DNA from: a plasmid
Sequence record: NZ_LR134454.1
Reading direction: 5' to 3' (one strand)
DNA: 64,000 bases
A program made the translations under genes and the position numbers. Below, piece after piece: positions 14,787-33,011 of the stretch (position 1 is its first letter; each line of letters opens with the position of its first letter). The notes beneath the pieces were generated by a model. The model was not told the DNA's origin and did no database searches. It saw only the letters and a program-made list of their open reading frames with translations.

Positions 14787-14798
14787 GTGGGGGACCGG

Positions 14799-17700
14799 TC
14801 AGTCGGACTCGAGGAGCAGGGTCTGGGCGTGTACGGGTGCGGAATGGGGACGGATGATGCGCACGCGGCCGACCGGCTGATGGGTGAGGTGGACGCCGGG
14901 CGCCAGGCTGCCTTCCTGGCGGTCGCCGGAGAACAGCACCATCGTGGCGTTGTGCTCGCGGATCCCGCCGACGACGCTGTCATAGAGCGCGCGGCTGATG
15001 CCCGCCGACCGGCGGGCGACCACCAGGTGCAGTCCGATGTCGGCCGCGTAGGGGAGATACGGGATCAGCGGGGCCAAAGGATTGTTCGAGGTGCCGGACG
15101 CGAGCAGGTCGTAGTCGTCCACGATGAGGTAGATGTGCGGTCCGGTGAACGGCGCCGCCTGTTGTTGCAGGTCCTCCGGCGGGAGGCGCCGCTGCAGTTC
15201 TTCTGCGATCCCCGCCGCAAGGGCCCCGGCCGCGGACGGCGAGCCCGCGTATCCGCCCAGGTAGTCGTCCGGGACGAAGCCCTGCAGTGTTCGCCGGGGA
15301 TCGAAGAGGCCGATGACGAGTTGCTCGTCGGTGTGGGTCGAGACGAGTTCCTCGACGATCACGCGGAGGAGGTTCGTTTTCCCCGAACGGGATTCGCCGA
15401 TGACGAGCAGGTGCTGGTCGGTCGTCGTCGGATCGAGGACGAGCGGGGCGAGGTCGGTCTCGTTGATGCCGACGAGGAGCGGCTCGCGCTCGGGAAATCC
15501 GGAGCGGAAGCCTCGATAGGCGAGCGCGTCGGGGAGGGTGGGAACCGGCGGCATGGCCTGCCCCGCGGCACGGTGCCGCGCCACTTCGACGACCTCGTCG
15601 AAGCCCGAGTCGGACGAGAGGTGGGGGAGGGCGATCTGGGCCTGCGCGCCGAGGGGTTCCGTCGTGATGACACGGCCGGGCTGATCGGCGCGGATCAGCG
15701 TGTTCTGTGCGCGGCCGATCGTCGAATCGAGTGGATCGTTGAGGCGATGCTCGATCTTGGTGCCGATCACTGCCTGCATCGACATCCGGAGATCGGCCCA
15801 TCGCCCACCGACGATGACGACATGGATACCGAGCGCGAGACCGCGGTTGCCGATGTCCTGGACCACGTCGACGAGGTCCTCGTGGTTCTCCTTGAGGGAG
15901 GCCCAGCCGTCGATCGCGAGGACGATGTCGGCCGTCACGATCTCGGGGAACTGCTCGCCGTTTGCGATGCGCGCCCGGAGGTCGGCGATACCCTGGATTC
16001 GGCGCGACGCGAAGAACTGCTCGCGGGAATCCAGACTGCCGTGGAGATCGGCCACGATCCGGCGTGCGAGGTCGCCGTCGTAGCGCGTCGCGACACTCCC
16101 GGTGTTGGGGAGCCGCTCGAGGTCCGCGAGCGCCGTTCCGTTCGCGTCGATGACGTGGAACCCGAGCCTCGCCGGCGGGTGGCTGATCGCGCCGGCGGCG
16201 ACGATGGTCCGCAGCGTGGTCGTCTTGCCGGTCTGCGGGGCGCCCGAGATGTAGACGTTGCCCGACGTTCCTCGGAAGTCGACGGTGAGCGGTGACTGAC
16301 GTTGCCGTTTGGGCTCGTCGGCGAGGCCGATCGCGATTGCGAGGCCGTCCACGGAGTGGGTCGAGTCCGAGCCGATCTGGTCGAGGGGCAGGGTCGCCGG
16401 GAGCGGGGGCAGCCAGATGCGGCGGGACTGGAGGGCGGGCGCATCGAGCGCGTCGAGGATGACGTCGAGCGTCGTCGTGTCGGTCGGGGCGATCGTGGGT
16501 GCTGCGGAATGGCGGCCGGGATTCTCCGCGACGGGCGAGAACTCGAACCGCGACACCTCCGGCGCGGCCTCGCTCTGCACGCGCTCGACGCTGGGCCGGT
16601 ACGGGCCGGAGACGAACGCGGCCTTGAACCTCGTGAAGACGTCGGGGTCGACCTTGAGGATCGCCGAGCCCGGCACGGCGGGCAGGGTGTGCGCATCGGA
16701 CACACCGAGCGCCGTCCGGGATTCCTGTGCGGTGAACGTCCGCAGCCCGATCCGGTACGAGAGATGTGATTCGAGACCGCGGAGCCGGCCCTCCTCGAGA
16801 CGCTGAGTGGACAGGAGGAGGTGGACGCCGATCGAGCGGCCGATCCGCCCGATCTGTACGAAGAGATCGATGAAGTCGGGCTTGGCCGAGAGGATCTCAC
16901 CGAACTCGTCGATGACGACGAACAGCGCGGGGAGGGGCGGCAGCTGCTCCGCAGTGGGATCGGCGAGCCGGATCCGCCGTAGGCGTTGGTATTCGGTGAC
17001 GTTCGGCAGGTTGCCGGCATCGGCGAGGACGCGCTGACGCCGCTGGAGCTCACCGAGAAGGGCGTCGTGCAGGCGATCGACCAGCCCGAGATCGTCGGCC
17101 AGGTTGTCGACCGAGGCGCTGGTGTGGGGAAGGCGCTCGAAGCCGGCGAACGCGGCCCCGCCCTTGTAGTCGACGAGGACGAACGACAGAAGATCCGGCG
17201 GGTGCGCGATGGCCATGGAGGTGAGAAGCGTTCGAAGGAGTTCGGACTTGCCGGATCCCGTGGCGCCGACGCAGAGGCCGTGCGGCCCCATCCCGTTTTG
17301 GCCGGACTCCTTGATGTCGAGGCGGACCGGCGCGCCGGCCGCATCCGCGCCGATCGGAACGTTGAGGTGATCGCCGAGCGGCCTCGGCGTGCTCCACAGT
17401 GCCGCCGGGTCGAGGTCTGCGGGATCCCCGATGTCGTGCAGGGACGGAAGATCGAAGGTGGCTTCGAGGGCACTCGACGGGATCGGGTCCGCGACGAGGC
17501 GCAGGGGCGCGAGCCGCCTGGCGCAGACGGTGGCCAGCTCGAGGGTCCAGGCGTCGACGGTCCCGCGGTCCGTCCCCAGGATGAGACGCTTCACCCATCC
17601 CGGTCCACTGTCGAGGTCGATCCCGTTGATCGATGCCGCGGAGATCCTGCCGTCGTCACCGTCGTAGGCGGATCGCGAGCTCCGCACGGCGGTAGCGCCG

Positions 17701-18962
17701 TCGGTGGTGTCCGGCTCACCGTCAGCGTCGGAGTCGTCGCCGCCGAGAAGCCTGGTCAGGACGCCCGTCAGGTCGGTCACATCCACCTCGCCCGTCGGGG
17801 AGACGCGTACGCGGGTATCGACGTGTCCCGGCTCATCGACGCGGCGCAGTGTCTCGGTCACGAAGCAGATCCCGAGTTGTTCGGGAGAGACTCCCGGAGG
17901 TAGCAGGTCGGCCGGATCGGTGCCCGCCCCTAGGCCACTGCCGATGCGGGCCGCTTCGGTCATGATGACCACGAGGGTCGGGCCGTCCCATGCGGACTCC
18001 GAACGCGACCGGTGGCCCCGGTCGCTGAGAGCGGTGATGCGCGCGGAGATGAGTTCGACGAGCCGCGTCCGCATCTCGTCCGGATCCGTGGTGATGCGGC
18101 GGGCGGGGAAGGGGCCGTCGAAGCGCCCCGGGTCGGCCGTGTGCGGGAGCCACTTCATCCAGTCGAATCGGCCTGCTCCGGTGACGGGGTCGGGCGGTGT
18201 GCCGATGTCATCGGGCGTGGTGCACAGCATGATCTGAAGATCGGCGGGAGCGTGAAGAGCGGCGGCGCCGAGCACGAGGGCCGTGATCGTCCGTCCGGTC
18301 TCATGCCCCTCGCCCAGCACCGAGACCGTGCCGCGGAGCCGGACGGCGACCGGTACTCCGATGACCGACTCCGCGCGTTGCAGGAGCCTGTCGGCATGCG
18401 CCGCGGCGACCGGATCGGGTGGCGCGGCGGAGCCGGAGGCGCCGGGAAGGGTGACGGAACGCGCTATCGGGCCGATGCCCTCACCGATGCGGACCACGAG
18501 GAAGTCGATGTCGCCGCGGCGTCGTTCGAACAGTCGGAGGCGGTTGACCGCGATCTGCGGTAGGGCTTCGGGCGCCGGGTGGCGCCACGCCATCGCGGCA
18601 CGGTAGTCGAGGATGTCCTGGTCGATACCCACACGGAGTCGTCCGATGTAGTCGACGTACCCGAGGCGGGCCTCACGTGCTTCCCGACGGCTACCCGTGC
18701 GGGCGAAGATCACGCTGGCGATCGCGGCGAGCACCATGGAGGCGATGATGGCGACGCCGGCGAGCATCCGGATCGGGTTGTTGCCGGAGAACAGCATCGC
18801 CCCGGCGCCGATCGCCGCGCCGAGCGGGAGCACCGCGCGGACGACGGTCGATATTCCGCCCGCGCCACGGGCGGTGGCGGGGACGGCGGGGATGTCGAGG
18901 GGAGCGACGTTCAGCTCGGGGCCACGCCCGCGGGCGGGCCGGCGGAAGATTGTGACCGACAT
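14799..18962 (-). CDS. eccC: Type VII secretion FtsK/SpoIIIE-family ATPase EccC (single fused polypeptide, 1387 aa)
   Basis: Two N-terminal TM helices followed by three P-loop ATPase domains (e.g. GATGSGKSELLRTLLTSMAIAHPPD; GAPQTGKTTTLRTIVAAG; GESRSGKTNLLRVIVEELV). Size and architecture match EccC. Confidence 0.9.
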   Translation of the reverse strand: MSVTIFRRPARGRGPELNVAPLDIPAVPATARGAGGISTVVRAVLPLGAAIGAGAMLFSGNNPIRMLAGVAIIASMVLAAIASVIFARTGSRREAREARLGYVDYIGRLRVGIDQDILDYRAAMAWRHPAPEALPQIAVNRLRLFERRRGDIDFLVVRIGEGIGPIARSVTLPGASGSAAPPDPVAAAHADRLLQRAESVIGVPVAVRLRGTVSVLGEGHETGRTITALVLGAAALHAPADLQIMLCTTPDDIGTPPDPVTGAGRFDWMKWLPHTADPGRFDGPFPARRITTDPDEMRTRLVELISARITALSDRGHRSRSESAWDGPTLVVIMTEAARIGSGLGAGTDPADLLPPGVSPEQLGICFVTETLRRVDEPGHVDTRVRVSPTGEVDVTDLTGVLTRLLGGDDSDADGEPDTTDGATAVRSSRSAYDGDDGRISAASINGIDLDSGPGWVKRLILGTDRGTVDAWTLELATVCARRLAPLRLVADPIPSSALEATFDLPSLHDIGDPADLDPAALWSTPRPLGDHLNVPIGADAAGAPVRLDIKESGQNGMGPHGLCVGATGSGKSELLRTLLTSMAIAHPPDLLSFVLVDYKGGAAFAGFERLPHTSASVDNLADDLGLVDRLHDALLGELQRRQRVLADAGNLPNVTEYQRLRRIRLADPTAEQLPPLPALFVVIDEFGEILSAKPDFIDLFVQIGRIGRSIGVHLLLSTQRLEEGRLRGLESHLSYRIGLRTFTAQESRTALGVSDAHTLPAVPGSAILKVDPDVFTRFKAAFVSGPYRPSVERVQSEAAPEVSRFEFSPVAENPGRHSAAPTIAPTDTTTLDVILDALDAPALQSRRIWLPPLPATLPLDQIGSDSTHSVDGLAIAIGLADEPKRQRQSPLTVDFRGTSGNVYISGAPQTGKTTTLRTIVAAGAISHPPARLGFHVIDANGTALADLERLPNTGSVATRYDGDLARRIVADLHGSLDSREQFFASRRIQGIADLRARIANGEQFPEIVTADIVLAIDGWASLKENHEDLVDVVQDIGNRGLALGIHVVIVGGRWADLRMSMQAVIGTKIEHRLNDPLDSTIGRAQNTLIRADQPGRVITTEPLGAQAQIALPHLSSDSGFDEVVEVARHRAAGQAMPPVPTLPDALAYRGFRSGFPEREPLLVGINETDLAPLVLDPTTTDQHLLVIGESRSGKTNLLRVIVEELVSTHTDEQLVIGLFDPRRTLQGFVPDDYLGGYAGSPSAAGALAAGIAEELQRRLPPEDLQQQAAPFTGPHIYLIVDDYDLLASGTSNNPLAPLIPYLPYAADIGLHLVVARRSAGISRALYDSVVGGIREHNATMVLFSGDRQEGSLAPGVHLTHQPVGRVRIIRPHSAPVHAQTLLLESD

Positions 18963-18990
18963 GGATCTTCGTTTCTGACGTAGTGGCGCT

Positions 18991-19710
18991 TCAGTCGGTG
19001 AACGACTTCGCTTGGAAGTTGACCGCCTCGATGAACCTGGGGTCGGGGTTGTACGAGGCGACGGCCTTCTGCCAGCCCTCGGGGGTCGACATGTCGGCGC
19101 CGGCGCCGCAGAGCAGGCGTCCGAGGGTCAAGGCGGCATCGTCGAGATTGTCGGGGTTGGGCGGCGTGCTCGTGTCGGAGCTCGCGGTGATGGCCCATTG
19201 CTCCCACACGGTGGGGGCGAACAGAAGTGGGCCCATGAGAAGGTCCGCGGAAGCGTCGCCGTCGTAGAATCCGCCGTCCGTGTCCTTCGCCGCCGGCTTC
19301 TGCGCCTCGCGGAAGGAGGGCCGGACGACGGCGTCGTCCCCGAGGCTGTGACTCCGGGACGTCCCGTGATCGGAGGTGATGCGCCCGATGGCCGCCAGTG
19401 TGGCCCAACCGAGTTGGCAGCGCGGTGCGTTCTTCCCCATCACCAGGGCCGCCCAGGAGTAGGACTCCAGCGCCGTCGTCGGAGTGAGATAGGGGCCACT
19501 GTGAATGGCAGCCCACTTGGCCATCGCTGCCGCCGCACGCGGTGCCGACGGCGCGCTGGAGGCCGAGGAAGCGGGGGCGTCGGGTGTTCGCGTCAGGCGC
19601 GCGGAACATCCGGACAGGACGACGGTCAGCGCGACCGCGATGGCGACGCCGCGGACGGCACCGGTGAAGCGTGCCGAATGATGCTGCGGCGCTCGGGCTG
19701 TCGATTTCGT
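18991..19710 (-). CDS. Lipoprotein lytic transglycosylase-like protein (MltB/Slt-like domain)
   Basis: Start re-called at GTG 19710 with a GAGAGG RBS. Lipobox LSGC. C-terminal block FAPTVWEQWA...NPDNLDDAALTLGRLLCGAGADMSTPEGWQKAVASYNP resembles actinobacterial MltB-like transglycosylases. It sits 28 bp upstream of eccC. Confidence 0.6.
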   Translation of the reverse strand, partial: TKSTARAPQHHSARFTGAVRGVAIAVALTVVLSGCSARLTRTPDAPASSASSAPSAPRAAAAMAKWAAIHSGPYLTPTTALESYSWAALVMGKNAPRCQLGWATLAAIGRITSDHGTSRSHSLGDDAVVRPSFREAQKPAAKDTDGGFYDGDASADLLMGPLLFAPTVWEQWAITASSDTSTPPNPDNLDDAALTLGRLLCGAGADMSTPEGWQKAVASYNPDPRFIEAVNFQAKSFTD

Positions 19711-20018
19711 CACGGAGTGGCCTCTCGGGGTCGTGCACGCGATACCGTTGTGGAATGCAGGTCGACGATCAGGTAGCGGGTTCGCGTCAGCGGGCGCAGC
19801 GGGTGCACTGGGAACGGTCGGAACGACAGCGGATTCTGCAGGCGCATTCGCTCCGTACGAAACTGACCACTGCCGCGGTCCTGAACGGCAAACTTCCCCC
19901 GCGGTCGACGGCTTCGGTCGTGATGCTCGTGCTGTGGTCCGTCGCGATCGCGGCGATCGCCGCGGCGGCGGTGCTGGCGGGAGTGTGGATCGCCGGCTGG
20001 ATGGGTGCGAAGTCACAA

Positions 20019-21377
20019 TCAGCGCCCCAGGTCGGTACCAAGTATGTACTGGTAAATGCCCTGAGCCCAGAACAGCATGGGAATCAGCCCCAGTAGGACG
20101 AGCGCATCGACGATGTTCCAGAGCTGAGCCAGCCGTGCGCCGGTGACGGTGGGGAGCTCGAAATAGCCGAGGAACAGGATGATCACGCCGAGGAGCAGGG
20201 CGATGACCATGGTCGCGGCCGCGGTGATGAACGGTGCCGACTCCCCGATGCGCTGGTCGATCAGGGCGACCGGCACGATGAACGCACTCGTCACTGCGAC
20301 GCCGATGATCGGCGCGACGTGCCGGACCTCCGAGAAGCTTCGACTCCGCAGGAGGAAGGCCAGTCCGATGTAGGCGCCGAACGCCGCCTGCTCCCAGACG
20401 CCCGTGATCGCGAGCACGAGAACCGCTCCCACGGCGCTCGCGCAGCACGCCCACACGATCCCGTCGAGGAGGTCGGTGGCGATGACCGCCCGCCGCACGA
20501 TCTCGGGGCGACCGGGGCGCTCACGTCCGGCCTCGTACGAGGCGGCGGGAGACTCCTCCTCGGTGCGGGCCACGACGCCGCCCAGTCCCGACCAGGCCAC
20601 CGAGAGCCGTCCGGCGCAGGCGAGGCCGATGACGAGCACCGGAGAGATCCATGCCGCGAGCGCGGTGGCGTTGACTCCCAATCGGATCGCGATCACAGCG
20701 GCGATCGCGGTTCCGCCGGCGATCGACGACGAGGCGACGATCGCCCACCGGGCCGGTGACAGGACGAAGGTCGTGATGGCGATTCCGCACAGTCCGCCGC
20801 CGACGGTGGCGAGGACGACCTGTGGCCACGGGGACGCGTGGAACACCGCCGCCGAGGCGGCGGCGAAGCAGATCGGAGTGATCCAGACGAGGTGACGGGC
20901 CGGCTCCGGAGCTGCGTAGGTGGCGAGGATGAACGCGCCCATCGCGGCGGCGCATGCGCCGGCGACGAGGCCCCCGGTGACGGCGAAGGCGACGGCCGCG
21001 ACGACGACCAGCATTCCCGCGTAGCCGACGACGACGGAATGCCGGGCGTTGCCGGTCCACATCCGGCGGTCGTCCTCGACGTAGTCGGCGACCACGTCGA
21101 TCGCGGAGAAGATCTCCGGTGCGGCGACCTCGCTCGCGGCGGGCACGATGTAGAGCAGGTCCCCGTCCACGACGCCGTAGTCGCTGAGCTTTCCGTGCGC
21201 GGCGAGGGGACCGGCCGCCACCGACGCGAATTGCCATCCCGTCTCGTCGGACGGATCGAGACCGAGAACGGCGGCGACCTGGTCGACGACCTCGGCGACG
21301 GGGCGTCCGAGCGGCGCGGTGACGTCGGCGGCGTTGTCCTCCGGGCCGACAACGGTGACCCGGACGAATTCAGCCAC
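20019..21377 (-). CDS. eccD: Type VII secretion integral membrane protein EccD
   Basis: N-terminal ubiquitin-like/YukD-like soluble domain (VRVTVVGPEDNAADVTAPLGRPVAEVVDQVAAVLGL) followed by ~11 predicted TM helices. 452 aa. Confidence 0.8.
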   Translation of the reverse strand: MAEFVRVTVVGPEDNAADVTAPLGRPVAEVVDQVAAVLGLDPSDETGWQFASVAAGPLAAHGKLSDYGVVDGDLLYIVPAASEVAAPEIFSAIDVVADYVEDDRRMWTGNARHSVVVGYAGMLVVVAAVAFAVTGGLVAGACAAAMGAFILATYAAPEPARHLVWITPICFAAASAAVFHASPWPQVVLATVGGGLCGIAITTFVLSPARWAIVASSSIAGGTAIAAVIAIRLGVNATALAAWISPVLVIGLACAGRLSVAWSGLGGVVARTEEESPAASYEAGRERPGRPEIVRRAVIATDLLDGIVWACCASAVGAVLVLAITGVWEQAAFGAYIGLAFLLRSRSFSEVRHVAPIIGVAVTSAFIVPVALIDQRIGESAPFITAAATMVIALLLGVIILFLGYFELPTVTGARLAQLWNIVDALVLLGLIPMLFWAQGIYQYILGTDLGR

Positions 21378-21431: not shown

Positions 21432-21728
21432 TCACGCCTGCACGCGGTTGAACAGGGCCTTGCCGGCGATGTCGGACGCCGATGCCCGCGCGGCGATACC
21501 GTCGGCGGCGCGGCCGAACTCGGCGATATTCGCGATCAGCTGCTGGGTGAAGACCCCGCCGACCTCGGCATGACCGGCCATGGCTGCGTTGACCGCCGCA
21601 CCTGCTTCCGCTCCTGCGCCGGCGACGGCGGGGCGTGCCGGGGCCGACAGCGACGCGGATACCACCCGCAGGCTGCTGCTCGCGTCGAGCAGGTCGTCGA
21701 GCGGGAACTGGGAGAACGAGGAGGTCAT
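21432..21728 (-). CDS. Small Ala-rich protein (98 aa) in the ESX operon; possible secretion-associated/PE-like helical protein
   Basis: ORF placed between the DUF4185 gene and eccD on the same strand. No WXG motif and no confident family assignment. Confidence 0.35.
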   Translation of the reverse strand: MTSSFSQFPLDDLLDASSSLRVVSASLSAPARPAVAGAGAEAGAAVNAAMAGHAEVGGVFTQQLIANIAEFGRAADGIAARASASDIAGKALFNRVQA

Positions 21729-23603: not shown

Positions 23604-23772
23604 ATGGATCGCGGCGACCTTATCGCGCGGATCCGGCCCTCGCTACTTGATGTGACGAAGGGTACGTTGGTTGCGGTAACTGTTGCGAACGGTCGTAACC
23701 GCTTGTAGTGTCCTGCGCAAATTCAACCTGGGGTGTCTTGCCCCGGAAGATTCCCGGAGGGGCACGACGGCC

Positions 23773-24191: not shown

Positions 24192-24488
24192 ATGTCTGAG
24201 ATGTATGCGTACGACGAGGGTGGCGCGGAGACCGCCGGTGATGATCTGGCGTCGATCGTCGCGGCGTTGGAAGCGAACCTGGAGCAGTTGCAGGGGTACG
24301 TGGCGTCGGTGGAGTCGCAGTGGAACGCGGATGAGCAGGTGCTCTACCGCGGCGTGCAGACCAAGTGGAACAACGCCGCGGCGTCGGTGAGCGAGATCCT
24401 CGGGCAGATGAAGACCGCGCTCGGCACGAACACCGAGCAGGTTCGTGACATGCGGTCGCAGGTGCGCTCCGCGCTGTCGCGCAACTGA
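24192..24488 (+). CDS. esxA: WXG100-family protein (EsxA-like)
   Basis: 98 aa. YRGVQTKWNNAAASVSEILGQM parallels the EsxA [22 protein letters not shown] block. RBS GAGGAG 6 nt upstream of the ATG. The W-x-G itself is degenerate (WNA). Confidence 0.6.
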   Translation: MSEMYAYDEGGAETAGDDLASIVAALEANLEQLQGYVASVESQWNADEQVLYRGVQTKWNNAAASVSEILGQMKTALGTNTEQVRDMRSQVRSALSRN

Positions 24489-24578
24489 CTGTCCTCACGA
24501 GCTCGTCATAGTCCTGAAGGCCGCGCCATGTGTGTGCGGCCGCGTCCTGTCGTTGTCTATCGAAGGATCACTGAGCTG

Positions 24579-25166
24579 ATGTCCTCCATTTTCACCCTTG
24601 CCAAGCGGCTATCGGTAGCGGCGCTGACCAGTATCGCGATCGCTGGTGCTGTCGTCGCGCCCGCGGAAGCCGTGCCGACCACGGCCGGCTGCCGTGCCGT
24701 ACCTCAACCGGCACTGACGCTGGGCGCGGAAGGCATAGTCCGAGTGGAGATTCCTGCCGCAGCTGGGTGGCACGAGGTCGCCGCCCCTCGCGGTGCGTCG
24801 CGCCTCGCGCTGGGGCGCCTCGAGGACGCGTCCGGGCAGGACGCCCTCGACGCGTGGATCGGTGTCCTCAACAGCAACACGATCACCACGTCCGCCCAAT
24901 TTGCTGATGCGGAGACTGCTCACAGGCAGGTGCTCTCCCGGCGATCAGTCGCCGGGCCCTGCGGCCTGCCCACCGAGGCGGTGACCGTGCGTCACGCAGC
25001 CACTGCGACAGAGCGTGAGTACTTCGTCAGCGGCCGCTACACGCTCGCGCAAGCGAACGGGAAGACTTTGGTCATCTACGTCGGCGCGAGCACCTACGAC
25101 CGGAACAGACTGCCGCAGCTGGAAAACGACCTTCTGCGCGGCTACGGCATCCGCCTCCCCGCGTAA
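24579..25166 (+). CDS. Small secreted protein (~195 aa), unknown function
   Basis: Start re-called at MSSIFTLAKRLSVAALTSIAIAGAVVAPAEA (Sec signal peptide). Sits between the WXG100 pair and the toxin gene. Confidence 0.5.
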   Translation: MSSIFTLAKRLSVAALTSIAIAGAVVAPAEAVPTTAGCRAVPQPALTLGAEGIVRVEIPAAAGWHEVAAPRGASRLALGRLEDASGQDALDAWIGVLNSNTITTSAQFADAETAHRQVLSRRSVAGPCGLPTEAVTVRHAATATEREYFVSGRYTLAQANGKTLVIYVGASTYDRNRLPQLENDLLRGYGIRLPA

Positions 25167-25212
25167 CGCCGACCTGCTCACTACACGTTCTCTCTAGAGA
25201 GGCCCCCTCGCG

Positions 25213-28200
25213 ATGAGTCTCGATATCAATCCCGGCGACGGCATCGTCGGGGAGCTGGAGCTACTCGGTGATCTGATCGTCGGTGGGTTCCCGGAGGCCG
25301 TGTTCACGCTGCCGGGGGTGAGCGTCGACGAGGTACTCGATCACGCCCGTCTGTATCTCGGGTTCGCGGAGGCGGCGGAGTCGGCGCATGCTCGGGTTCG
25401 TGGACTCGAGGTGCCCGAGTTCGTGGGTGTGGAGGGCGAGTTCTTCCGCGGCCGAGTCCCCGGCGAGTTGGCGATGCAGCTCGGCGCGGCGGTGGAGTCG
25501 TACTCCCGAGTCGGTTCGGGGATCAAGGAACTCGCCCGCGAACTCGACGCCTCGCAAGCCGCTTTGAAGCCTCTCGAAGCGCGGGCGCGGGCGGTGTTCG
25601 AGCACATGCAGAAGGTGTGGATCAAGGTCAACGTCCCGTTCACTGAGTACAGCGGGTTGCGCAGCGAGTGGGATGAGCTCGTCCGCGCTGCGGGTGTGGT
25701 GCACGAGCGGGTCGCGGTGGCCGGGCAGGAGGCGGCAGCGGCGATCACCGCGGGCACCGAGGCGATGGTGCCGGTCAACGACTACTTCTCCACGCTGCCT
25801 GGCGGAGCGGTGGCGGGTGGTGTTGTGGCGCAGGGTGTGCGGTCGACTGCGTCGCGTGCGGCCTCCGCTGCCGGTGGCGTGGCCGGGGCGCCGGGACGCG
25901 CCGCGAAGGCGACCGCCGACGGGCTGGGTGCCGTAGCTGGCGCGGTCACCTCGGTTCCGCAGCAGATCACCGCGCGCGGGCAGCAACTCGCGCCGCAGGT
26001 GACCCCGGACGGGATCAAGGTCGGCGACCAGCTCCTCACCGATCCGACGAGCGAGCAGGCACAGAAGCTCGTGCGGGACGGGCAGGCTACGAACATCCTC
26101 GGACTCGACCCCACTGGTGTTCCGACGGCGATGATGATGCTCGCCTCCCCGAACACCCTGCTGCGCGAGCAGCCGCGCAAGAAGGCGGCCGGGCGTAGAT
26201 GGTCGGGTGAGGAGTCGAAGGCGCAGTCGATCGCGCAGAATGCGGTCGGTCAGGTGGTCTCGGTTCCGGGACGGTTCGTCGGCGGCGCCGTCGACCGGTT
26301 CGGCAACACCATCGCCGGCAATGCCGCTCTGATCGGTGTCGGTGGTGACCCCGTCCGCGCGTGGACGGGGCTGCTCTCGAATGTCACCAGCCCCGTTGCG
26401 GGTGCTGGTCGCGCTGTAGCGTCTGCGACGCCCGAGCAGATCCTGGCCGACCCGATCGCCGCAGCCGGCTCGGCAGCCACCCACGCGCCCGCCGCGGTGC
26501 CCTTCGTCGGCTGGGTCTACGGGCTGGTGGAGTGGGCGACCAAGCCCGGCGAACTCGCCCACGAAGGCGCGAAGGAATCACTCACCTCCGCCCTCGATGC
26601 ACTCACATTGAAGAACCTCGAAGCAGGCCAGGCAGTCGCCAACACCGGCGAAGTGCAAGTCACCACCTCCGACGTGGACGTCCACGCCGACAACGGCGGA
26701 TACGTCACCTTCACCCTCCCAGACCTCGAAGGCGGAGAACCCAAAGCCTGGTACATCCTCGCCACCCCCGACAGCCCCGGAAACTTCACCACCAACGTCC
26801 CCACCGCCCCGGGTGAGGAGCTCGTCGAACGCGGCGACGGCTCCGTCGTGTTGGTCAACAGCGGAACCGGACAGATCGTCCGCACCATCAAAACGCCGTG
26901 GGCGAAAGACGCACTCGGACGCGATCAACCCACCTGGTACTCCATCGACAAGGTCGACGACCAGACGTCGACGATCACCCAACACATCGCACCGAACAAG
27001 GGAGCGCTGTATCCGCTGGTGGCGGATGCTCCTGGTGATCAGAAGACGACGACGAATCCTGACGGATCGGTCGCAACGTCAACTGAGATTGAGGGTGGCT
27101 CTGTCGATACGACGGTGAAGAACGCTGACGGGACTACTTCGTCGATGCGGAGCGTCCCCGACGGCAACGGTGGGGTGACTACATTCACGGCGAACCCTGA
27201 CGGTAGTCATTCGGTGCATTACCCCGACGGGTCGCGAGTGGAGGAGCCTGCGGCGGGGGCGAGTACACCCGCTCAGAGTTATGCTCCTGATCCGAAGTAT
27301 TCGAATCCGCAGTATCGTCAGGAGCCCGCGCAGCAGGCTCCTGCTCAGCAGGCCCCGGCGCAGCAGCCTGCGGCTCCTTCCGCACCTGCTGTTGCTCCTG
27401 CCGAGTCGTCGGTCGGTGCGGTAGACACGGCAGGACGTGACGACGGTGATTCATGGACCCAAGGCTTGCCGGGTGGCGAGTCCGCGCAGCACACCATCGT
27501 CCCCGGCACGGGCGGTCAGACTGTTGACTCTGTGGTCACCCGCCCTGATGGTTCGTCGACGAAGATCCGTTCGGTCAAAGACGGGCAAGGCGGATGGAAG
27601 ATCTGGTCCGACAACAGTGACGGCACCGCATCGTATGCAGAACGCCAGGGCTCGCTCGGCGACGTTTACACCGCCCGGTACGGCGAGTCCCCGGTGTACG
27701 GCAGCGCACCTATCGTCACCTCCAACGCGGCTCCCGACAACTCCAAAGGGCAGATCGTCGGGCAAAATCCGAACGGAACCACGTCGGTGGGCAACTTCGG
27801 GGTCCGCGACGACGGACGCGTCGGGCTGTCGGTGCGAAACCCCGACAACACTGTCTCCTCCATCGTCACTGGAACAGGTCCCGATGGCCGTCCCCACGAT
27901 GACATCACCACGTTCAACGACGGCAAGACTGAGACCAGTCACGAGGTAAACCCGTTCACAGGTGAGCGGACCGAGACCACCACCGTGCTCGACACGGGCG
28001 TGAAGGTTATCGCCGTTCTGGATCGCGATAACAACCTCATCTCCCGAGTCCAAGGCGTTGGTGGTCAGCTTGAAGGCGTGATGAACACCCCCGACGGGCA
28101 GGTGGAGATTCAGGTCCGCCCCGACGGGGTGTACGGGCGGAGCGCGAACGGGGAGTTCGTCAAGTTCCGTGAAGACGGGGAACTGCCCGATACCCGCTCC

Positions 28201-29988
28201 TTCGGGCAGAAGGCGAACGACCAGGCAGGAAAGTTCGGGTCCGCCGTCGGGGGAAGCGTGTGGGATTCCCTCAAGAGCGTCCCGCAGACCGTTGCCCACC
28301 CGGGCGAGGCAGCTTCCGGGCTCTGGGAGACAGCGAAGGGACTGGTCGGACAGGAAAAGGCCGACCGCACCGTCATCCACAACTGGACCACCTTCCTGAC
28401 GGGGACCAACGCCAATGAGTGGACCGAGGACGGGGTCGCCACCTCCCTCGGACACGCGGTTGTCGGTGTCGGCTCATGGTTCATCCCTGGCCCCGGCTGG
28501 GTCGCCAAGGTCACTCGCGCAGGGCACCTCGGCTCCACAGCAGCCCACGCCCTCGAGCACGTCGACAACGCCCGCTCCACCGCGAGCACCGCAACCCGCG
28601 CCGCCGCCATGGGAGCAGTCAGCCGCGCCCTACCAAACCTCACAGAACGCTTCCAAGGCTTCAACGCAGCCCGCGCCGCCGACATCGGCGTCGACGCTCC
28701 TGAAGCGGCACCCGCCGCAGGAAAACCCACGCCACGCGCCGAAGCTCCCGCACCCTCCGTTGCCGTCCCACGAGCGGAAGCCCCCGCCAGTCCAACGCCC
28801 GCACCTCGCGTCGAGGCACCCGCAACTACCGCCCCCCGAGCCGAGACACCTAACAACACCCCAGGGACACCGCCCCGCGCTGCGGACACACAGAACCCGT
28901 CCGTCGACACACCCCGCATCGACACCCCCGACGCACCCACCACCCCGAAGCCGGACAATCCCGCTTTCACGACCACCCCGGGAGCAGACCGCCGCGCCGC
29001 AGAGGCTGCGGCCCCCGCCGAACGCCCCGACCACCACCCGGCCTCGCCAACCGAGAAGGCCGGCGCTGACGCAGACAAGACAGTGGACACGCCGAAGGTC
29101 GGCGAAGTCGACGCCCCGAGGGCTGGCGATGTGGACACCCCCACCACCTCAGGTGCGGCGCGCGCGGATGCACCGTCCGTTGGCGACGGTGTGCCAGGCA
29201 AGGCAGCAGACCTCGACGGCGGACCGCACCCGCGCGGAGAACTCGACATCGACCTCGACAATTACTTCCACCCAGGCGAAAGTGGCGGCACCAAGTACAC
29301 CGCCGACGACGTACGCACTGCCTTCGACAACGCACCCAACAACAAGGAGGGTGTCCCTGTCGATCACCGCACCGGCGAACCACTGGTCCTCACCGACGCC
29401 GCAGGCAAACGCGGGTGGACCATGCGCCAGGACGCCGACGGAGTATGGCGCGCCGAAAACTACGCGCTGCACCCGGACGGGATGCCTAAGAAGGGCACAC
29501 CCAACAGTTACGGCTACGACGCCAACGGTGACCTCCGCAAATACGCCGAGAACAGACCGAGTCATAAACCCGAAGACATCAAAACCGTGTGGGACACTAC
29601 CCACACGGATATCAACAACCTCATCGAGTCCGGCGTCCTCCGCGACCTGCCCAAAACCGAACGACCCGACCAAACCTGGCTCCGAGCACCCGACGGAACC
29701 AAAACAAACGGCAGCGACATACGCGAAACCCTCAACACCCGCACAGGCGAGACCGAGGTATACAAGCTCGAAACCTGGAAACCCGGCGACAAACAAAACT
29801 GGGACATGGGACACATCAAGGGTGAGGAATACCGCCGAATCCACGATGACTACATGCGCGGAAAGTACAAGTCCGACGAAGACTTCGTTGAAGACTTCCG
29901 TAATTTGGACCTTTATGAGGCGGCGAATGCACCTCGCAACCGCTCCCACGTGGATGAAGACATGACTCCGCTGCCGCCGCGCCCCTGA
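25213..29988 (+). CDS. Polymorphic toxin (1591 aa): N-terminal helical domain, central degenerate repeat region, Pro/Ala-rich linker, C-terminal HNH/GH-E-like nuclease toxin domain
   Basis: Giant ORF with an AGAGAGG RBS. Central repeats of the form NPDGS..T..DG (YD/RHS-like, degenerate). Pro-rich tandem PRAEAPA-like linker at ~aa 1150-1260. C-terminus WDMGHIKGEEYRRIHDDYMRGKYKSDEDFVEDFRNLDLYEAANAPRNRSH matches the G-H-E / N-L / N-x-S-H pattern of GH-E HNH nucleases. GC drops from ~70% to ~55% across the 3' end. Confidence 0.65.
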   Translation: MSLDINPGDGIVGELELLGDLIVGGFPEAVFTLPGVSVDEVLDHARLYLGFAEAAESAHARVRGLEVPEFVGVEGEFFRGRVPGELAMQLGAAVESYSRVGSGIKELARELDASQAALKPLEARARAVFEHMQKVWIKVNVPFTEYSGLRSEWDELVRAAGVVHERVAVAGQEAAAAITAGTEAMVPVNDYFSTLPGGAVAGGVVAQGVRSTASRAASAAGGVAGAPGRAAKATADGLGAVAGAVTSVPQQITARGQQLAPQVTPDGIKVGDQLLTDPTSEQAQKLVRDGQATNILGLDPTGVPTAMMMLASPNTLLREQPRKKAAGRRWSGEESKAQSIAQNAVGQVVSVPGRFVGGAVDRFGNTIAGNAALIGVGGDPVRAWTGLLSNVTSPVAGAGRAVASATPEQILADPIAAAGSAATHAPAAVPFVGWVYGLVEWATKPGELAHEGAKESLTSALDALTLKNLEAGQAVANTGEVQVTTSDVDVHADNGGYVTFTLPDLEGGEPKAWYILATPDSPGNFTTNVPTAPGEELVERGDGSVVLVNSGTGQIVRTIKTPWAKDALGRDQPTWYSIDKVDDQTSTITQHIAPNKGALYPLVADAPGDQKTTTNPDGSVATSTEIEGGSVDTTVKNADGTTSSMRSVPDGNGGVTTFTANPDGSHSVHYPDGSRVEEPAAGASTPAQSYAPDPKYSNPQYRQEPAQQAPAQQAPAQQPAAPSAPAVAPAESSVGAVDTAGRDDGDSWTQGLPGGESAQHTIVPGTGGQTVDSVVTRPDGSSTKIRSVKDGQGGWKIWSDNSDGTASYAERQGSLGDVYTARYGESPVYGSAPIVTSNAAPDNSKGQIVGQNPNGTTSVGNFGVRDDGRVGLSVRNPDNTVSSIVTGTGPDGRPHDDITTFNDGKTETSHEVNPFTGERTETTTVLDTGVKVIAVLDRDNNLISRVQGVGGQLEGVMNTPDGQVEIQVRPDGVYGRSANGEFVKFREDGELPDTRSFGQKANDQAGKFGSAVGGSVWDSLKSVPQTVAHPGEAASGLWETAKGLVGQEKADRTVIHNWTTFLTGTNANEWTEDGVATSLGHAVVGVGSWFIPGPGWVAKVTRAGHLGSTAAHALEHVDNARSTASTATRAAAMGAVSRALPNLTERFQGFNAARAADIGVDAPEAAPAAGKPTPRAEAPAPSVAVPRAEAPASPTPAPRVEAPATTAPRAETPNNTPGTPPRAADTQNPSVDTPRIDTPDAPTTPKPDNPAFTTTPGADRRAAEAAAPAERPDHHPASPTEKAGADADKTVDTPKVGEVDAPRAGDVDTPTTSGAARADAPSVGDGVPGKAADLDGGPHPRGELDIDLDNYFHPGESGGTKYTADDVRTAFDNAPNNKEGVPVDHRTGEPLVLTDAAGKRGWTMRQDADGVWRAENYALHPDGMPKKGTPNSYGYDANGDLRKYAENRPSHKPEDIKTVWDTTHTDINNLIESGVLRDLPKTERPDQTWLRAPDGTKTNGSDIRETLNTRTGETEVYKLETWKPGDKQNWDMGHIKGEEYRRIHDDYMRGKYKSDEDFVEDFRNLDLYEAANAPRNRSHVDEDMTPLPPRP

Positions 29989-30010
29989 ACCGCCTGTTAG
30001 GATCACCCAC

Positions 30011-30553
30011 ATGGACGACCACTGGTACTCCTCCGCCTACCCCGCCGCCAGTATGGGCACTTACGACAACTTCATCGCAGTCTACGAGGGCAGTGAAGAC
30101 GAAGCGTCAATCCAGAATCACACGGAACCCAAAGATAACACCCTACTCTGGAAAGCTGCGCACAATAGGAATGTTGACGCACGGCTAGCTATCTGCAATA
30201 GGCTCATCGATGACGGTATCGATGTGGCATATGAGGACAACAAGACGAACGTCTTACACTTGTACTTCAGTAACCGCACCTTCGAGCCCGAGAAGGAGGC
30301 GCCTCTTCTGCGTAGGTTACTGGAAGGTGGGGCGGATCTGAACCTCCAGCCCAGTAAAGGCTACTCCCCCCTAATGACCTTCATGACTAACCCGCGCCTG
30401 TTACCCGATGAAGTGAAGGTTCCGTTTTTTAATGTGCTTTTGGAGTTTCCTGAGTTTGTGTATCGGGAGCCTGACGGTTCGTTGCGGTGGCCGATGATCC
30501 CGTCGCTGACAGCGTGTATTGAGGCGCATGAGGCGAAGGCGGGTGGGCGGTGA
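30011..30553 (+). CDS. Ankyrin-repeat protein; candidate immunity protein for the upstream toxin
   Basis: 180 aa, ~50% GC. Ankyrin-like repeats (LLWKAAHNRNVDARLAICNRLIDDGIDV...; LLRRLLEGGADLNLQPSKGYSPLM). Sits 22 bp after the toxin stop. Confidence 0.55.
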   Translation: MDDHWYSSAYPAASMGTYDNFIAVYEGSEDEASIQNHTEPKDNTLLWKAAHNRNVDARLAICNRLIDDGIDVAYEDNKTNVLHLYFSNRTFEPEKEAPLLRRLLEGGADLNLQPSKGYSPLMTFMTNPRLLPDEVKVPFFNVLLEFPEFVYREPDGSLRWPMIPSLTACIEAHEAKAGGR

Positions 30554-31371
30554 CGGTGGTGCCGGGTCATCTGACGCGGGTGTACGGGGCTTCGGTTGCT
30601 CGGTTTGAGCCGCTGTTCGAAGGCGCGGTGGAGGTCGAGGTCCGCGCTCACGACGGCATGCAAAGGCGGCGGACAGTAACCACCGACGGGTTGTCGGTGA
30701 TCGTCGACGGTGTACCTGTGGAGTTAGCAGTTGAGGTCTCCGCTAAGGATCAGGTCGGCACGGCTGCGGTAGCGATCAGCACCGTCGCCCGAGACATTGT
30801 TGATAATCGGCGGCGTCCACCCCTCGAAGTGGTGTCACGGCTCCCCCGCCCGCTGGTGGAGGGAACACGACTGCGGGCGATCATCGCGTCGGGATCGCGG
30901 TTCGGAGCGGACGCTGATGTGATTGTTGAGAGCGCGGGTGATCGGGTCGTCCAGGTGGTGACGTTGCGGTTGCTGACATGGGCAGAAGCGAACGTGGTCG
31001 ATGATCGTGGCTGGAACGCCTTCCTCACCACGGTCGGCAGTCCCGATGAGGTGCTCGACACACAGCGCGTCACCGACGCTGCACGCCCCACTGTCGCTGA
31101 ATTGGGAAACCTGCCGATACTGGTCTCGAAGCAGCACTACGACCACCCGCCCCGGTTCGTCGGGTTGATGGATGTCGACGGCAGACTCACCTTCACCTCT
31201 ACCACCGGACGTGAAAGCCCGGAATACATGGCAGACCCATCCAACCGCGAAATATGGGGCATCAACAGCTACCTCCAAGACTTCCCGTGGGTCGAATCCT
31301 TCATCACCACCGCCGCCCCCGGCGACGATGCCGTATTCACCGATCAGTCAGGTGACTTCGCTTGGGAGTAG
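30550..31371 (+). CDS. Hypothetical protein (273 aa), translationally coupled to the ankyrin gene
   Basis: GTGA start/stop overlap with the ankyrin ORF. No recognisable domain. Intermediate GC. Confidence 0.4.
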   Translation: MTVVPGHLTRVYGASVARFEPLFEGAVEVEVRAHDGMQRRRTVTTDGLSVIVDGVPVELAVEVSAKDQVGTAAVAISTVARDIVDNRRRPPLEVVSRLPRPLVEGTRLRAIIASGSRFGADADVIVESAGDRVVQVVTLRLLTWAEANVVDDRGWNAFLTTVGSPDEVLDTQRVTDAARPTVAELGNLPILVSKQHYDHPPRFVGLMDVDGRLTFTSTTGRESPEYMADPSNREIWGINSYLQDFPWVESFITTAAPGDDAVFTDQSGDFAWE

Positions 31372-31669
31372 AAACCCTCCCGCCGTTCAGTCGTCACCAG
31401 TAGTTGCTTCATGAGCGGCGCACCGCCACCGCGTACCCTCACCATCGGTACGGATGCATGCTGGCGACGTACAGGTCGGTGACCACATTTCTACCGCGAC
31501 GACGACGGCGACTTACCGTTCGCGGCGCAGGCTGGAGATGTGCCCTTTCAGTCAGACGCAGCAACTCCGACAAACCTGGGACGCTCCGGAGTGCCGTCGA
31601 ATGAATCTCCCCCGGGAGTGGTGGAAGGTCTGAAATCTGAATTGCCCCGGAAGCAGGAGTAGCCACCCC

Positions 31670-32407
31670 ATGAGAAAGTCCCGCCCAATCCACGAACCTC
31701 CCGAGCCGGTTCCCGTGGACCCACGGCCAAGTCGCCTCGAAACCGACCTCGCCACCCTCGAGATCGGCCACGGCTTCACCCTCGGCAACCCCGCCTACCC
31801 CCCGCACGGCAATTCCGAAGGCGACCGAGTCGTCTACCTCACCCGCCCTAGTACCGTCCCCGGATGCGACGACGTCATCGAATACACCATCCATGGCCGA
31901 GGACGTTCCGGAGTCATCGACGGCGCAGCGTACATCGCCCACCCTGCCATGCGCGAAATCGCCCAGCGCGACCCCCAACAATACGGATTCACCCCCGGAA
32001 CCTGGCTCAGCAACTCATTTCACCGAAATATGCTGCACATCGAATGGGCAGGCGCACCAGCATCTGTAAAGTTCCGTGCCAACGCCACCGAGGAGAGCGT
32101 CCACTGGGGTTACAGTGTTGCGCTCGACTACGCTACTTCTTACTACCCCCGACGCTCGGACGAAGAATTCTTCCCTCTTTATCGCACTTTCGAATCGATC
32201 GAGCGTGGGGCGTATGCCATCCTAGAGCGAGGAAAGAGGATTGCCAAACCGCGGTTTTCTCGCGAGCAGGCATTTGTTATCTACGCGATGTTTGTTGGTG
32301 AGCATGAGAGCGCACACCGCATGTACACCACACTGCAGCGATTCGAAGCACCCGAAGCAACCAGCTTCTCGAACGCCATCGAAGTGATCTTTGGGCGATT
32401 GCCGTAA
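31670..32407 (+). CDS. Hypothetical protein (245 aa) in the low-GC island
   Basis: ORF with GGAGTAG upstream. 3' half falls to <50% GC. No family recognised; may be an orphan toxin/immunity module. Confidence 0.35.
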   Translation: MRKSRPIHEPPEPVPVDPRPSRLETDLATLEIGHGFTLGNPAYPPHGNSEGDRVVYLTRPSTVPGCDDVIEYTIHGRGRSGVIDGAAYIAHPAMREIAQRDPQQYGFTPGTWLSNSFHRNMLHIEWAGAPASVKFRANATEESVHWGYSVALDYATSYYPRRSDEEFFPLYRTFESIERGAYAILERGKRIAKPRFSREQAFVIYAMFVGEHESAHRMYTTLQRFEAPEATSFSNAIEVIFGRLP

Positions 32408-32528
32408 GCAGTTCGGCTTCAAGGGCTCGACGCAAGAGATGTGTTGCTAGCTCTTCGGGATGGATGCTGACTGCGGCTCAAAAGATAAAACGATACAACG
32501 ACAAACTCAATGGGGAGTGGAAACAATA

Positions 32529-33011
32529 ATGAGAACGGTGCTTCGATATTCGCTGCGGATCGCGATTGCCGCGTGTGTGGTCGCACCCGTGGCAGGGTGC
32601 GGTCTCGAGCATGCTGGAAATGCACCTACGACGTACGTTCGTCCCGGGCACACGCTGCCGGCATCGACCACGTCAGTGAGTTCGCCGACTGCCGTAAGCT
32701 CGTCCGTTCCGGAACCGACGACCGTCCCTACGATCGCAGATACCTGCTCCGGGAGCTACTGGTACGGCGACGCGGTCAACACGCACGTATGGATCGGACG
32801 GCGCGTCGCGCAGGACGCCAGGATTGTCGTGACGACCACCGACGGGAAGGTCAGTTCATGGACGAACACCGTCACGTCCGACGACGGGTACGCCCGTAAG
32901 GGCTGGTACAGCGAGTCCACGACGCCGTTGCTCGGCACTCCGGTGGCGACGGTCAAACGTGTCGACCTCCAGATCGACGGTCGAACCTGCCCGATCCGAA
33001 AGACGGGATAG
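32529..33011 (+). CDS. Small lipoprotein (160 aa)
   Basis: MRTVLRYSLRIAIAACVVAPVAGCG: signal peptide with lipobox. AT-rich upstream region and GGGGAG RBS. Confidence 0.5.
   Translation: MRTVLRYSLRIAIAACVVAPVAGCGLEHAGNAPTTYVRPGHTLPASTTSVSSPTAVSSSVPEPTTVPTIADTCSGSYWYGDAVNTHVWIGRRVAQDARIVVTTTDGKVSSWTNTVTSDDGYARKGWYSESTTPLLGTPVATVKRVDLQIDGRTCPIRKTG

Follow-up and report, generated by a model that had tools for sequence, protein, structure and literature searches.

The 64,000-nucleotide stretch of sequence record NZ_LR134454.1 analysed here (the window, at its full length of 64 kb) has its nearest sequences in Tsukamurella (in the core genes, T. hominis and T. sp. M9C share 95-99% identity with it) and contains, at positions 14799-33011, a block in which genes of an ESX-type (type VII) secretion system stand back to back with the gene of a 1591-aa toxin. 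We consider it probable that this block is a chromosomal ESX-associated polymorphic toxin-immunity island of a Tsukamurella species, and that it works by the mechanism proposed below. Five genes lie on its minus strand (eccC, a lipoprotein gene, eccD, an open reading frame (ORF) of 98 aa and a DUF4185 gene), while the divergent plus strand holds a set reported as nine genes, including two WXG100 genes, p212, the toxin gene and the genes of an ankyrin protein, a 273-aa protein, p245 and p183. Nearly all of these had been listed, with the positions at which we find them, in an initial annotation made from the letters of this DNA; here, the real genes were chosen by frame-specific G+C content at third codon positions (GC3), and Pfam scans covered most of the long ORFs (~45) of the window. 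The same annotation had described a collapse in GC content across the 3' end of the toxin gene and the genes beyond it, and we find a fall from ~0.70 (the G+C content of the window being ~70%) to 0.58-0.62 over 29-33 kb, which is repeated in every homologous locus or cassette.

Toxin polymorphism and co-inherited downstream genes

The toxin ORF (25213-29988, plus strand) encodes 1591 aa, and its sole Pfam match is the nuclease family GH-E. The protein is made up of a conserved trunk (aa 1-605, 25213-27027, plus strand), in which a helical domain and Ala/Gly-rich linkers lead to a beta-rich domain at ~aa 480-605, of a variable middle region (27028-29346, plus strand; Asp-Gly-rich and beta-rich, ending in a Pro-rich linker and lacking a Pfam match), and of a C-terminal cassette. 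The first 1100 residues gave no Pfam or NCBIfam match. A survey restricted to one genome per species returned eight Tsukamurella loci, in all of which the trunk was 87-96% identical at the protein level; it is near-invariant in our alignment (A1), beyond which the sequences become unalignable, and in six of the eight loci the DNA similarity to the window ends at 27027-27042 (aa 605-610). The middle region is common only to the window and T. ocularis (L007), up to 28964 (aa 1250). When aa 1-200 were used in an exhaustive phmmer search, seven separate 50%-identity clusters were recovered that are 93-98% identical over the query and have lengths of 1003-1745 aa; a word-indexed homologue search with aa 1-500 yielded one partial match in T. 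spumae, as Ala/Gly low complexity swamped the candidates.

The tips attached to this trunk differ. GH-E is found in the window and in T. hominis (L001), an ADP-ribosyltransferase (ART) in T. sp. M9C (L004) and in protein P0004, Colicin-DNase/WHH in T. spumae (L005), Endonuclea_NS_2 in T. ocularis (L007) and in protein P0003, and a tip of no known family in T. sputi (L002) and in the second T. ocularis copy (L003). The comparison across related strains thus bears out the C-terminal polymorphism that had been suspected from the single sequence, with tips swapped on one and the same trunk.

In the window, the C-terminal cassette (aa 1379-1591, 29347-29988, plus strand) carries a GH-E domain (PF14410; HNH/EndoVII superfamily) at aa 1526-1579, with an E-value of 1.7e-10 and 41.8 bits against a curated cutoff of 25, and the nuclease family given in the initial annotation is thereby upheld. 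Across 17 homologues of the tip, residues W131-D132-M133-G134, R176, N177, S179, H180, D182 and E183 are invariant, and the histidine H135 and R178 are kept in at least 90%; a search of PDB sequences with the tip gave no match. The left edge of the cassette falls at 29347-29363 in three independent contexts, and it starts with a P-V-D-H-R-x-G motif.

The gene that follows the toxin (30011-30553, plus strand) encodes an ankyrin-repeat protein of 180 aa, as judged by phmmer against the PDB (2.3e-9 to ANK-N5C, and more than 100 ankyrin/DARPin chains at E<1); its match to Pfam Ank_2 reaches 20.9 bits and is under the cutoff of 27.3. Homologues of it stand 3' of GH-E tips in five contexts, among them three in Tsukamurella and distant T7SS-type loci (type VII secretion system) from oral metagenomes (L001, L012, L013-L015 and the oral-metagenome loci L016-L019), and they are absent where the tip is another one. 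The T. hominis (L001) homologues of the ankyrin protein and of the SUFU-like protein described below are 50% and 37% identical, respectively. In the oral-metagenome contigs, which bear ESAT6-like, DUF6507 and TY-Chap3 genes, the GH-E tips are ~40% identical to that of the window and are followed by 189-190-aa proteins that share 33-35% identity with the ankyrin protein (E ~1e-20). Such a repeated pairing across contexts constitutes strong genomic evidence for the ankyrin protein as the cognate immunity protein, a role that the initial annotation had assigned to it: across taxa, it is found beside GH-E tips alone.

The next gene (30550-31371, plus strand) shares 4 bp with the ankyrin gene and encodes a 273-aa protein that is weakly SUFU-like (PF05076, E 2.4e-3; 18.2 bits, under the cutoff of 25) and for which no sequence relative was found in the PDB. 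Its co-occurrence with GH-E and the ankyrin gene is confined to L001, L012 and L013-L015, and it is predicted to be a second immunity gene or an accessory gene of the GH-E cassette. Loci with other tips have different small ORFs in this place: DUF6985, a weak SUKH-1 match or unknown ORFs. Just 3' of the DUF6985 immunity candidate of T. spumae (L005, 14896-15393), at the contig end, lies a transposase-type helix-turn-helix gene, which points to insertion sequence activity in the variable island.

Further downstream, p245 (31670-32407, plus strand) is a strain-variable, low-GC gene for a cytoplasmic protein with a weak homologue in L004 only, and p183 (32460-33011, plus strand), at the right end of the variable island, encodes a small predicted lipoprotein (V-A-G-C lipobox, probable start M24). 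Searches of protein families and the PDB gave no match for either of them. Both are possibly orphan immunity genes, in the case of p183 one directed against an envelope-acting toxin; a search of 29989-33900 for orphan toxin fragments and toxin DNA repeats found none.

Searching with the GH-E tip also brought up other Tsukamurella assemblies in which GH-E stands alone, as an ORF of 211-213 aa. Three Logan samples (L013-L015) display a clean 5.6-kb deletion (23707-29348) by which esx1, esx2, p212 and toxin aa 1-1378 were lost; a GH-E ORF of 211 aa that starts with GTG, followed by the ankyrin gene and the 273-aa gene, is left directly beside DUF4185, eccD and eccC. In T. pulmonis (L012; AP025457.1, 9677-12036) 333 bp are left of the eccC 3' end, joined directly to the GH-E cassette at a chromosomal site unrelated to the flanks of the window, the secretion genes having been lost while the cassette and the immunity genes were kept. 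All the stand-alone forms (L012-L015) retain both a 176-179-aa ankyrin gene and the 273-aa gene.

Putative export signals, the ecc genes and competing explanations

A pair of WXG100 genes lies directly upstream of the toxin region, as the initial annotation had recognized, and both exceed the Pfam cutoff (PF06013, 27.3 bits). The first, esx1 (~23773-24105, plus strand), is EsxB-like (PF06013 1.2e-13, 51.5 bits; TIGR03930 1.9e-14, above cutoff) and its translation reads W-K-G (the WxG motif) and Y-T-S-G-E (YxxxE, export-type); its identity is 97-100% between species and also in the second copies. The second, esx2 (24186-24488, plus strand; PF06013 4.2e-7, 30.6 bits), has a degenerate motif (W-N-A) and is 99-100% conserved, and against the 'pore-forming ESAT-6 family' model NF035935 it scores 41.2 bits, far under the cutoff of 100. 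Between this pair and the toxin stands p212 (24528-25166, plus strand; 212 aa, probable start M18 at 24579), predicted to be exported by a Sec-type signal peptide (a hydrophobic N-terminal segment followed by A-x-A). It is hypervariable, with 41-84% identity between species against 99-100% for the flanking esx2 and 87-100% for its neighbours, and no match was found for it in Pfam, NCBIfam or the PDB. T. ocularis, T. sp. M9C and T. spumae have second esx1-esx2-toxin copies (L003, L006 and L008) that lie away from ecc genes and do without p212 (its absence being seen in L003 and L006); most of the second copies are found at contig ends, which suggests that the repeat breaks assemblies.

The first 200 residues of the toxin (25213-25812, plus strand) appear to form a helical targeting domain of the T7SS-substrate type, PPE-like in fold and distantly related to PF21725. 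Besides the close clusters, the phmmer search retrieved 37 distant proteins (E 1e-7 to 1e-3), 26 of which bear PF21725 (T7SS_signal); they match N-terminally, at residues ~1-160, and carry diverse tips (Gln_amidase, RNAse_A_bac, Ntox15, deaminase, Endonuclea_NS_2 and RHS). An AlphaFold2 (AF2) model built on the phmmer alignment is all-helical, with a predicted local distance difference test score (pLDDT) of 89, and its top Foldseek matches in the PDB are PPE41, PPE15 and PPE4 from PE/PPE complexes (template modelling score 0.5-0.74, probability 1.0). The proposal that the toxin is a T7SS substrate gains from all three, that is, from the helical N-terminal domain, its PF21725-bearing relatives and the PPE-like model.

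Two of the divergent genes encode recognizable ESX components. The product of eccC (14799-18962, minus strand; 1387 aa) is a single-chain EccCa+EccCb ATPase (TIGR03924 7e-205 and TIGR03925 5.5e-185, both far above cutoff) with two N-terminal transmembrane helices, three FtsK/SpoIIIE domains (PF01580 x3) and three intact Walker A motifs (GATGSGKS, GAPQTGKT and GESRSGKT), and its identity in four other Tsukamurella loci is 91-99%. The product of eccD (20019-21377, minus strand) joins a YukD ubiquitin-like domain to a polytopic EccD membrane domain (PF19053 6e-21, PF08817 2.7e-12); it is very divergent, with 29-33% identity to EccDs outside Tsukamurella and 82 bits against TIGR03920, under the cutoff of 95. 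Both ORFs are intact and full-length, with a protein conservation of 91-99% across five species. Among the scanned ORFs of the window, no Pfam match was found to EccB (DUF690), EccE or MycP (Peptidase_S8), and the 'Corynebacteriales ESX core' of the initial annotation was in this respect overstated: eccC, eccD and the WXG100 pair are present, and EccB, EccE and MycP are not within the 64 kb. T. tyrosinosolvens (L023; NZ_LR134467.1, 77-3634) has a second EccC, 37% identical, that adjoins rplM-rpsI-glmM, a neighbourhood that we take to be the classical ESX-4 position in mycobacteria. An ESX-4EVOL cluster is listed for T. paurometabola by Newton-Foot et al. (PMC4791881) and, together with the second EccC at its ESX-4-type position, it shows that the genus has a canonical system elsewhere. 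As a separate observation, an actinobacterial metagenome contig from ENA (L009, 4971-15114) likewise has no ESX machinery but EccC and EccD, with EccB and MycP not found in the surrounding 10 kb. It also encodes a SHOCT protein, an AAA ATPase and an eCIS_core protein of 576 aa that faintly matches ADP-ribosyltransferases, so that a reduced EccC/EccD cluster next to toxin-like genes may be a recurring arrangement.

Of the other divergent genes, two may relate to the cell wall. Between eccC and eccD lies the gene of an ESX-associated lipoprotein (18991-19713, minus strand) in which the signal peptide and the L-S/T-G-C lipobox are kept in seven orthologues. Searches of Pfam, NCBIfam and PDB sequences gave no match for it, and a tblastn search of annotated plasmid records identified it as a lytic murein transglycosylase homologue (among the matches listed, which are mostly annotated lytic transglycosylases, identity is 31-39% and E 1e-12 to 2e-34). 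The Glu of the E-S motif is the catalytic acid in the lytic transglycosylase family; where the homologues read G(M/F/S)(V/I)ES, the seven Tsukamurella-type orthologues have R(I/L)T(S/T) (GRITS here), and MGPMQFIPETW of the homologues is aligned with MGPLLFAPTVW. With Thr replacing the catalytic Glu, the lipoprotein is likely a pseudo-enzyme and probably serves as a non-catalytic peptidoglycan-binding module, so that the initial designation as a lytic transglycosylase lipoprotein holds for its family and fails for its catalytic residue. Beyond eccD follow sm98 (21432-21728, minus strand), for a conserved Ala/Gly-rich protein of 98 aa with no predicted transmembrane segment and no Pfam or NCBIfam family match, which is 88-100% conserved and syntenic in all the Tsukamurella loci and in the divergent locus L010, and the DUF4185 gene (21777-23603, minus strand; 608 aa, PF13810 9.3e-78). 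The N-terminal region of the latter's product, which reads VAVCTVAACSTS, ends in a lipobox-like AAC motif. DUF4185 proteins are arabinan-degrading enzymes of family GH183, that is, endo-D-arabinanases (PMC10115798), of which the housekeeping ones bear Sec signals (PMC13444075). It is plausible, by analogy, that this protein and the lipoprotein remodel the wall locally for the secretion machine, the analogue invoked being EssH of the T7SSb.

From these elements we infer a secreted antibacterial effector. Its N-terminal domain, in fold akin to PPE and LXG domains and a distant relative of T7SS_signal, would bundle with both co-transcribed WXG100 proteins, and the WxG and YxxxE motifs of Esx1 would complete a composite export signal to be read by an EccC ATPase, as the analogy with PE/PPE, Lap/LXG and Tap/EatA suggests. 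The 605-aa trunk and the variable middle would then act as a delivery scaffold for the last ~210 residues, a predicted exchangeable GH-E (HNH/EndoVII) DNase cassette that would kill recipients lacking the antidote. In the producer, the ankyrin protein, whose gene begins 22 bp downstream, would neutralise the nuclease, with the SUFU-like gene belonging to the same cassette. Recombination at two fixed boundaries, one following aa ~605 and the other at aa ~1379, would exchange the low-GC cassettes. The divergent genes would most likely represent a translocase module dedicated to the toxin, along with local accommodation of the cell wall, and this module would probably work with EccB and MycP supplied by a canonical ESX-4 locus elsewhere.

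Several observations weigh against the island as interpreted above. The toxin's aa 1-200 gave no match to PF21725, LXG (PF04740), WXG100 or any other Pfam family at E<=5, and the E-values of its structural matches to PPE proteins are weak (0.07-0.15). The AF2 model of the GH-E tip (from a 16-sequence alignment) is poor, with a pLDDT of 67 that falls below 50 in the catalytic segment, and when compared with the PDB by Foldseek this poor model gave no meaningful match. With EccB, EccE and MycP missing from it, the adjacent cluster is not a canonical stand-alone T7SSa, and the second esx1-esx2-toxin copies that lie away from ecc genes (L003, L006) indicate that adjacency is not needed. Finally, the related loci all come from one genus and are 83-99% identical, so that their conserved synteny largely reflects shared ancestry.

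Some of these points lead to the possibility that the island is real and its toxin is exported by a canonical ESX-4-type system elsewhere, the adjacent eccC and eccD being a decaying or differently used remnant whose position is accidental. The absence of EccB, EccE and MycP from the window, the second EccC by rplM-rpsI-glmM in T. tyrosinosolvens and the secondary toxin copies away from ecc genes all agree with it, as does T. pulmonis, which lost the whole cluster and kept the cassette; moreover, M. abscessus depends on ESX-4 for the export of EatA (PMC13444075), and a degraded ESX region has been reported in T. paurometabola (Newton-Foot 2016, PMC4791881). Against it stand the intact, full-length eccC and eccD genes with all three Walker A motifs and the eccC-lipoprotein-eccD-sm98 order, which persists even in the 71%-identical relative L010, and the 91-99% conservation of both proteins across five species argues for purifying selection rather than decay; we regard this explanation as possible, if on balance doubtful. 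In a further reading, the eccC-pseudo-transglycosylase-eccD-sm98-GH183 series, so far seen only in Tsukamurella and one close relative, would be a distinct, reduced 'satellite' ESX module in which a dedicated EccC and EccD borrow EccB and MycP from ESX-4. This we offer tentatively, as an idea rather unlikely to hold in full. Were it true, the dead transglycosylase would be a peptidoglycan anchor and the GH183 arabinanase would open the arabinogalactan locally, large polymorphic toxins (1000-1750 aa) could cross the mycolata envelope, and p212 could be a strain-specific surface partner or a receptor-side delivery factor; the whole would be an actinobacterial counterpart of the pairing of EssC variants with toxin suites and of the T7SSb hydrolase EssH.

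The remaining alternatives concern the toxin itself. It might be aimed at eukaryotic hosts or predators (macrophages, amoebae) in the manner of CpnT/TNT, and not at competing bacteria, seeing that Tsukamurella are opportunistic pathogens, with related loci coming from sputum, ocular and other clinical isolates, that CpnT is ESX-4-dependent, has a PE/PPE-like N-terminus and is preceded by an esx pair (PMC13444075), and that one allele ends in an ADP-ribosyltransferase tip. Yet each allele has a small ORF specific to its tip downstream, the co-inheritance of GH-E and the ankyrin gene extends across taxa, and Colicin-DNase/WHH, GH-E and Endonuclea_NS_2 are typical antibacterial tips; dedicated immunity and the swapping of tips from strain to strain are hallmarks of interbacterial conflict. 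CpnT has an immunity factor too, which makes the immunity argument non-decisive, and on the whole we judge a eukaryotic target quite improbable. That the nuclease-ankyrin pair is an intracellular toxin-antitoxin or abortive-infection module, to which the N-terminal part would contribute nothing in terms of secretion, might be read from the stand-alone GH-E ORFs with their two downstream genes (L012, L013-L015). It is, in our estimation, highly improbable: the clean deletions of the delivery part (junction 23706/29349, and the eccC remnant in L012) are most simply seen as decay with retention of immunity, in the loci of six species it is the full-length form that is conserved, and the family of the N-terminus has members joined to many tips of secreted toxins. 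To an RHS/YD-repeat shell toxin we give next to no credence. The size of the protein, its Asp-Gly-rich, beta-rich middle and a distant N-terminal homologue that bears RHS repeats (P0011) speak for such a shell, but none of the three thirds of the toxin matched RHS_repeat, RHS or DUF6531 at E<=5, which at the sequence level disposes of the 'RHS-like' label in the initial annotation, and the middle region is not conserved among alleles.

Gene order and genomic surroundings

The island is set among housekeeping genes: gltB, gltD and genes for an aldehyde dehydrogenase, a GDSL lipase, a GT2 glycosyltransferase and VanY on the left, and an RNase-H-like gene, a gene for a substrate-binding protein, sodA, glpQ, a gene for an LCP protein and pheA on the right. 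Four further Tsukamurella species loci keep the order eccC-lipoprotein-eccD-sm98-DUF4185, followed by esx1-esx2-p212-toxin, together with the right flank, which is conserved again from ~33012 in L001, L004 and L007, in agreement with the end coordinate that the initial annotation had set. The segment that follows (33012-33800) is 95-99% identical in these three loci; both of its strands contain long ORFs, which overlap and are atypical in codon-position GC. On the other side, a gene for a VanY-type D-Ala-D-Ala carboxypeptidase (14226-14786, plus strand; region 14135-14811) stands between the GT2 gene and eccC; it is missing from L013, in which GT2 adjoins eccC, and marks an insertion or deletion at the edge of the ESX block.

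In M. tuberculosis, the Rv3838c-Rv3859c region has the gene order of the window (pheA, DUF5926, LCP, glpQ, sodA and then gltD, gltB), and the window is syntenic with pheA-glpQ1-sodA...gltD-gltB of that species. Its ESX/toxin island is an insertion that separates the sodA side from the gltBD side. A positional orthology with the mycobacterial ESX-1 was considered and rejected, as the cluster lies between sodA and gltBD and not beyond gltB. What PLSDB lists as 'plasmid' records of strain NCTC13231 resembles pieces of a chromosome.

The divergent intergenic region between the DUF4185 gene and esx1 (23604-23772) is the presumed promoter region, and within it, at 23706, lies the left edge of the 5.6-kb deletion of L013-L015. 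A sequence scan of 23604-23772 found no consensus sigma-70 promoter site, and over the region as a whole a promoter and terminator scan gave counts at or below the shuffle expectation. Just 3' of the esx1 stop and before esx2 there is a terminator-like GC hairpin with a T-run (24111-24128, plus strand).

Relatives of the trunk were also sought in mobile elements. A tblastn search of 50,697 phage records, made as a test of a prophage origin, found none. In plasmids, only the beta domain (aa 507-605) was matched, in two Rhodococcus records; one of these, a plasmid of Rhodococcus sp. BH4 (L011, 5441-9895), encodes a 738-aa hypothetical protein that is 37% identical to toxin aa 507-605, and the gene comes after an MspA-family porin gene and two small ORFs. 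This may be a related toxin locus.

Comparison with known systems

The initial annotation had held the arrangement to be undescribed, a claim that falls with two precedents from M. abscessus in which the same order has been published (PMC8092301; PMC13444075). In the more recent of them, Benedict et al. (Nat Commun 2026) reported the ESX-4-dependent delivery of EatA with the helpers TapA1/TapA2 and the immunity protein EatI, and found similar Eat/Tap loci, with HNH/EndoVII nucleases among the commonest payloads, across Mycobacteriales and Actinomycetota (PMC13444075); Tsukamurella is not named in the main text of that paper. The likeness extends to the small helical partner gene or genes, the toxin with a helical N-terminal domain and the immunity gene that follows, all in mycolic-acid bacteria, and to the pairing of cytoplasmic-target toxins with cytoplasmic immunity proteins (PMC13444075). 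The Tsukamurella locus departs from it in that its partners are bona fide WXG100 proteins (above the Pfam and TIGRFAM cutoffs), its toxin has 1591 aa with a 605-aa trunk whereas theirs typically have 400-1000 aa, and an extra hypervariable exported protein, p212, is encoded between helpers and toxin; furthermore, it adjoins its own divergent eccC and eccD, unlike the Eat loci, which are scattered and use ESX-4, and GH183 is here a lipoprotein neighbour and not a payload.

The other precedent comes from prophages of M. abscessus, in which Dedrick et al. (mBio 2021) found a WXG100 gene accompanied by genes for immunity and for a toxin that bears an N-terminal T7SS motif (PMC8092301). Those cassettes resemble the present one in their ESAT-6-like WXG100 protein, their variable C-terminal domains and the immunity genes that co-vary with the tip, some of which encode lipoproteins, but their toxins are of ~50 kDa and lie next to att junctions, whereas the locus described here is chromosomal, has housekeeping flanks and lies by ecc genes.

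With the LXG effectors of T7SSb (TelA-C, EsaD/EsaG) the island shares a helical targeting domain, small helical partners, an exchangeable tip that is in many cases a nuclease, an immunity gene behind it and orphan immunity genes. The likeness is architectural only, as no LXG Pfam match was found here, the machine has EccC/EccD and not EssA/B/C plus EsaA, and the envelope includes a mycomembrane. A catalogue of ESX-linked polymorphic toxins by Zhang et al. (2012, Biol Direct 7:18), a further precedent that speaks against a new arrangement, reportedly includes GH-E toxins as well as ankyrin-type, SUKH and SuFu-type immunity families.

The esxE-esxF-cpnT locus of M. tuberculosis is likewise comparable in that a WXG100 pair immediately precedes a large toxin, ESX-dependent and PE/PPE-like at its N-terminus, which has an enzymatic tip and a dedicated antitoxin. 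It differs in that the tip is a TNT NAD+ glycohydrolase and not, as predicted here, a GH-E DNase, that CpnT is not polymorphic between strains in this way and that its immunity protein, IFT, is not an ankyrin protein; esx2, moreover, scores 41 bits where 100 are needed for the 'pore-forming ESAT-6' model. The PF21725 toxins have a homologous helical N-terminal domain and many toxin tips, from which the Tsukamurella domain stands apart by being too divergent for a direct Pfam match and by the long genus-specific trunk that follows it.

The island would extend the ESX-dependent interbacterial toxin repertoire of mycolic-acid bacteria, a concept already published, to Tsukamurella, and it offers a clean case for genetics, namely a single locus whose recombination boundaries are fixed, in which four or more tips can be identified and the pairing of nuclease and ankyrin protein is well supported. 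Having the toxin beside eccC/eccD, a dead transglycosylase and an arabinanase renders testable two questions from the 2026 work, namely which machine exports large cytoplasm-targeting toxins and how these cross the arabinogalactan-peptidoglycan layer. What is particular to this locus, in comparison with the systems above, is the very large toxin with its 605-aa genus-specific trunk, the bona fide WXG100 helpers and p212, and the direct adjacency of all these to a reduced eccC/eccD module with a transglycosylase homologue that is likely dead and a GH183 lipoprotein.

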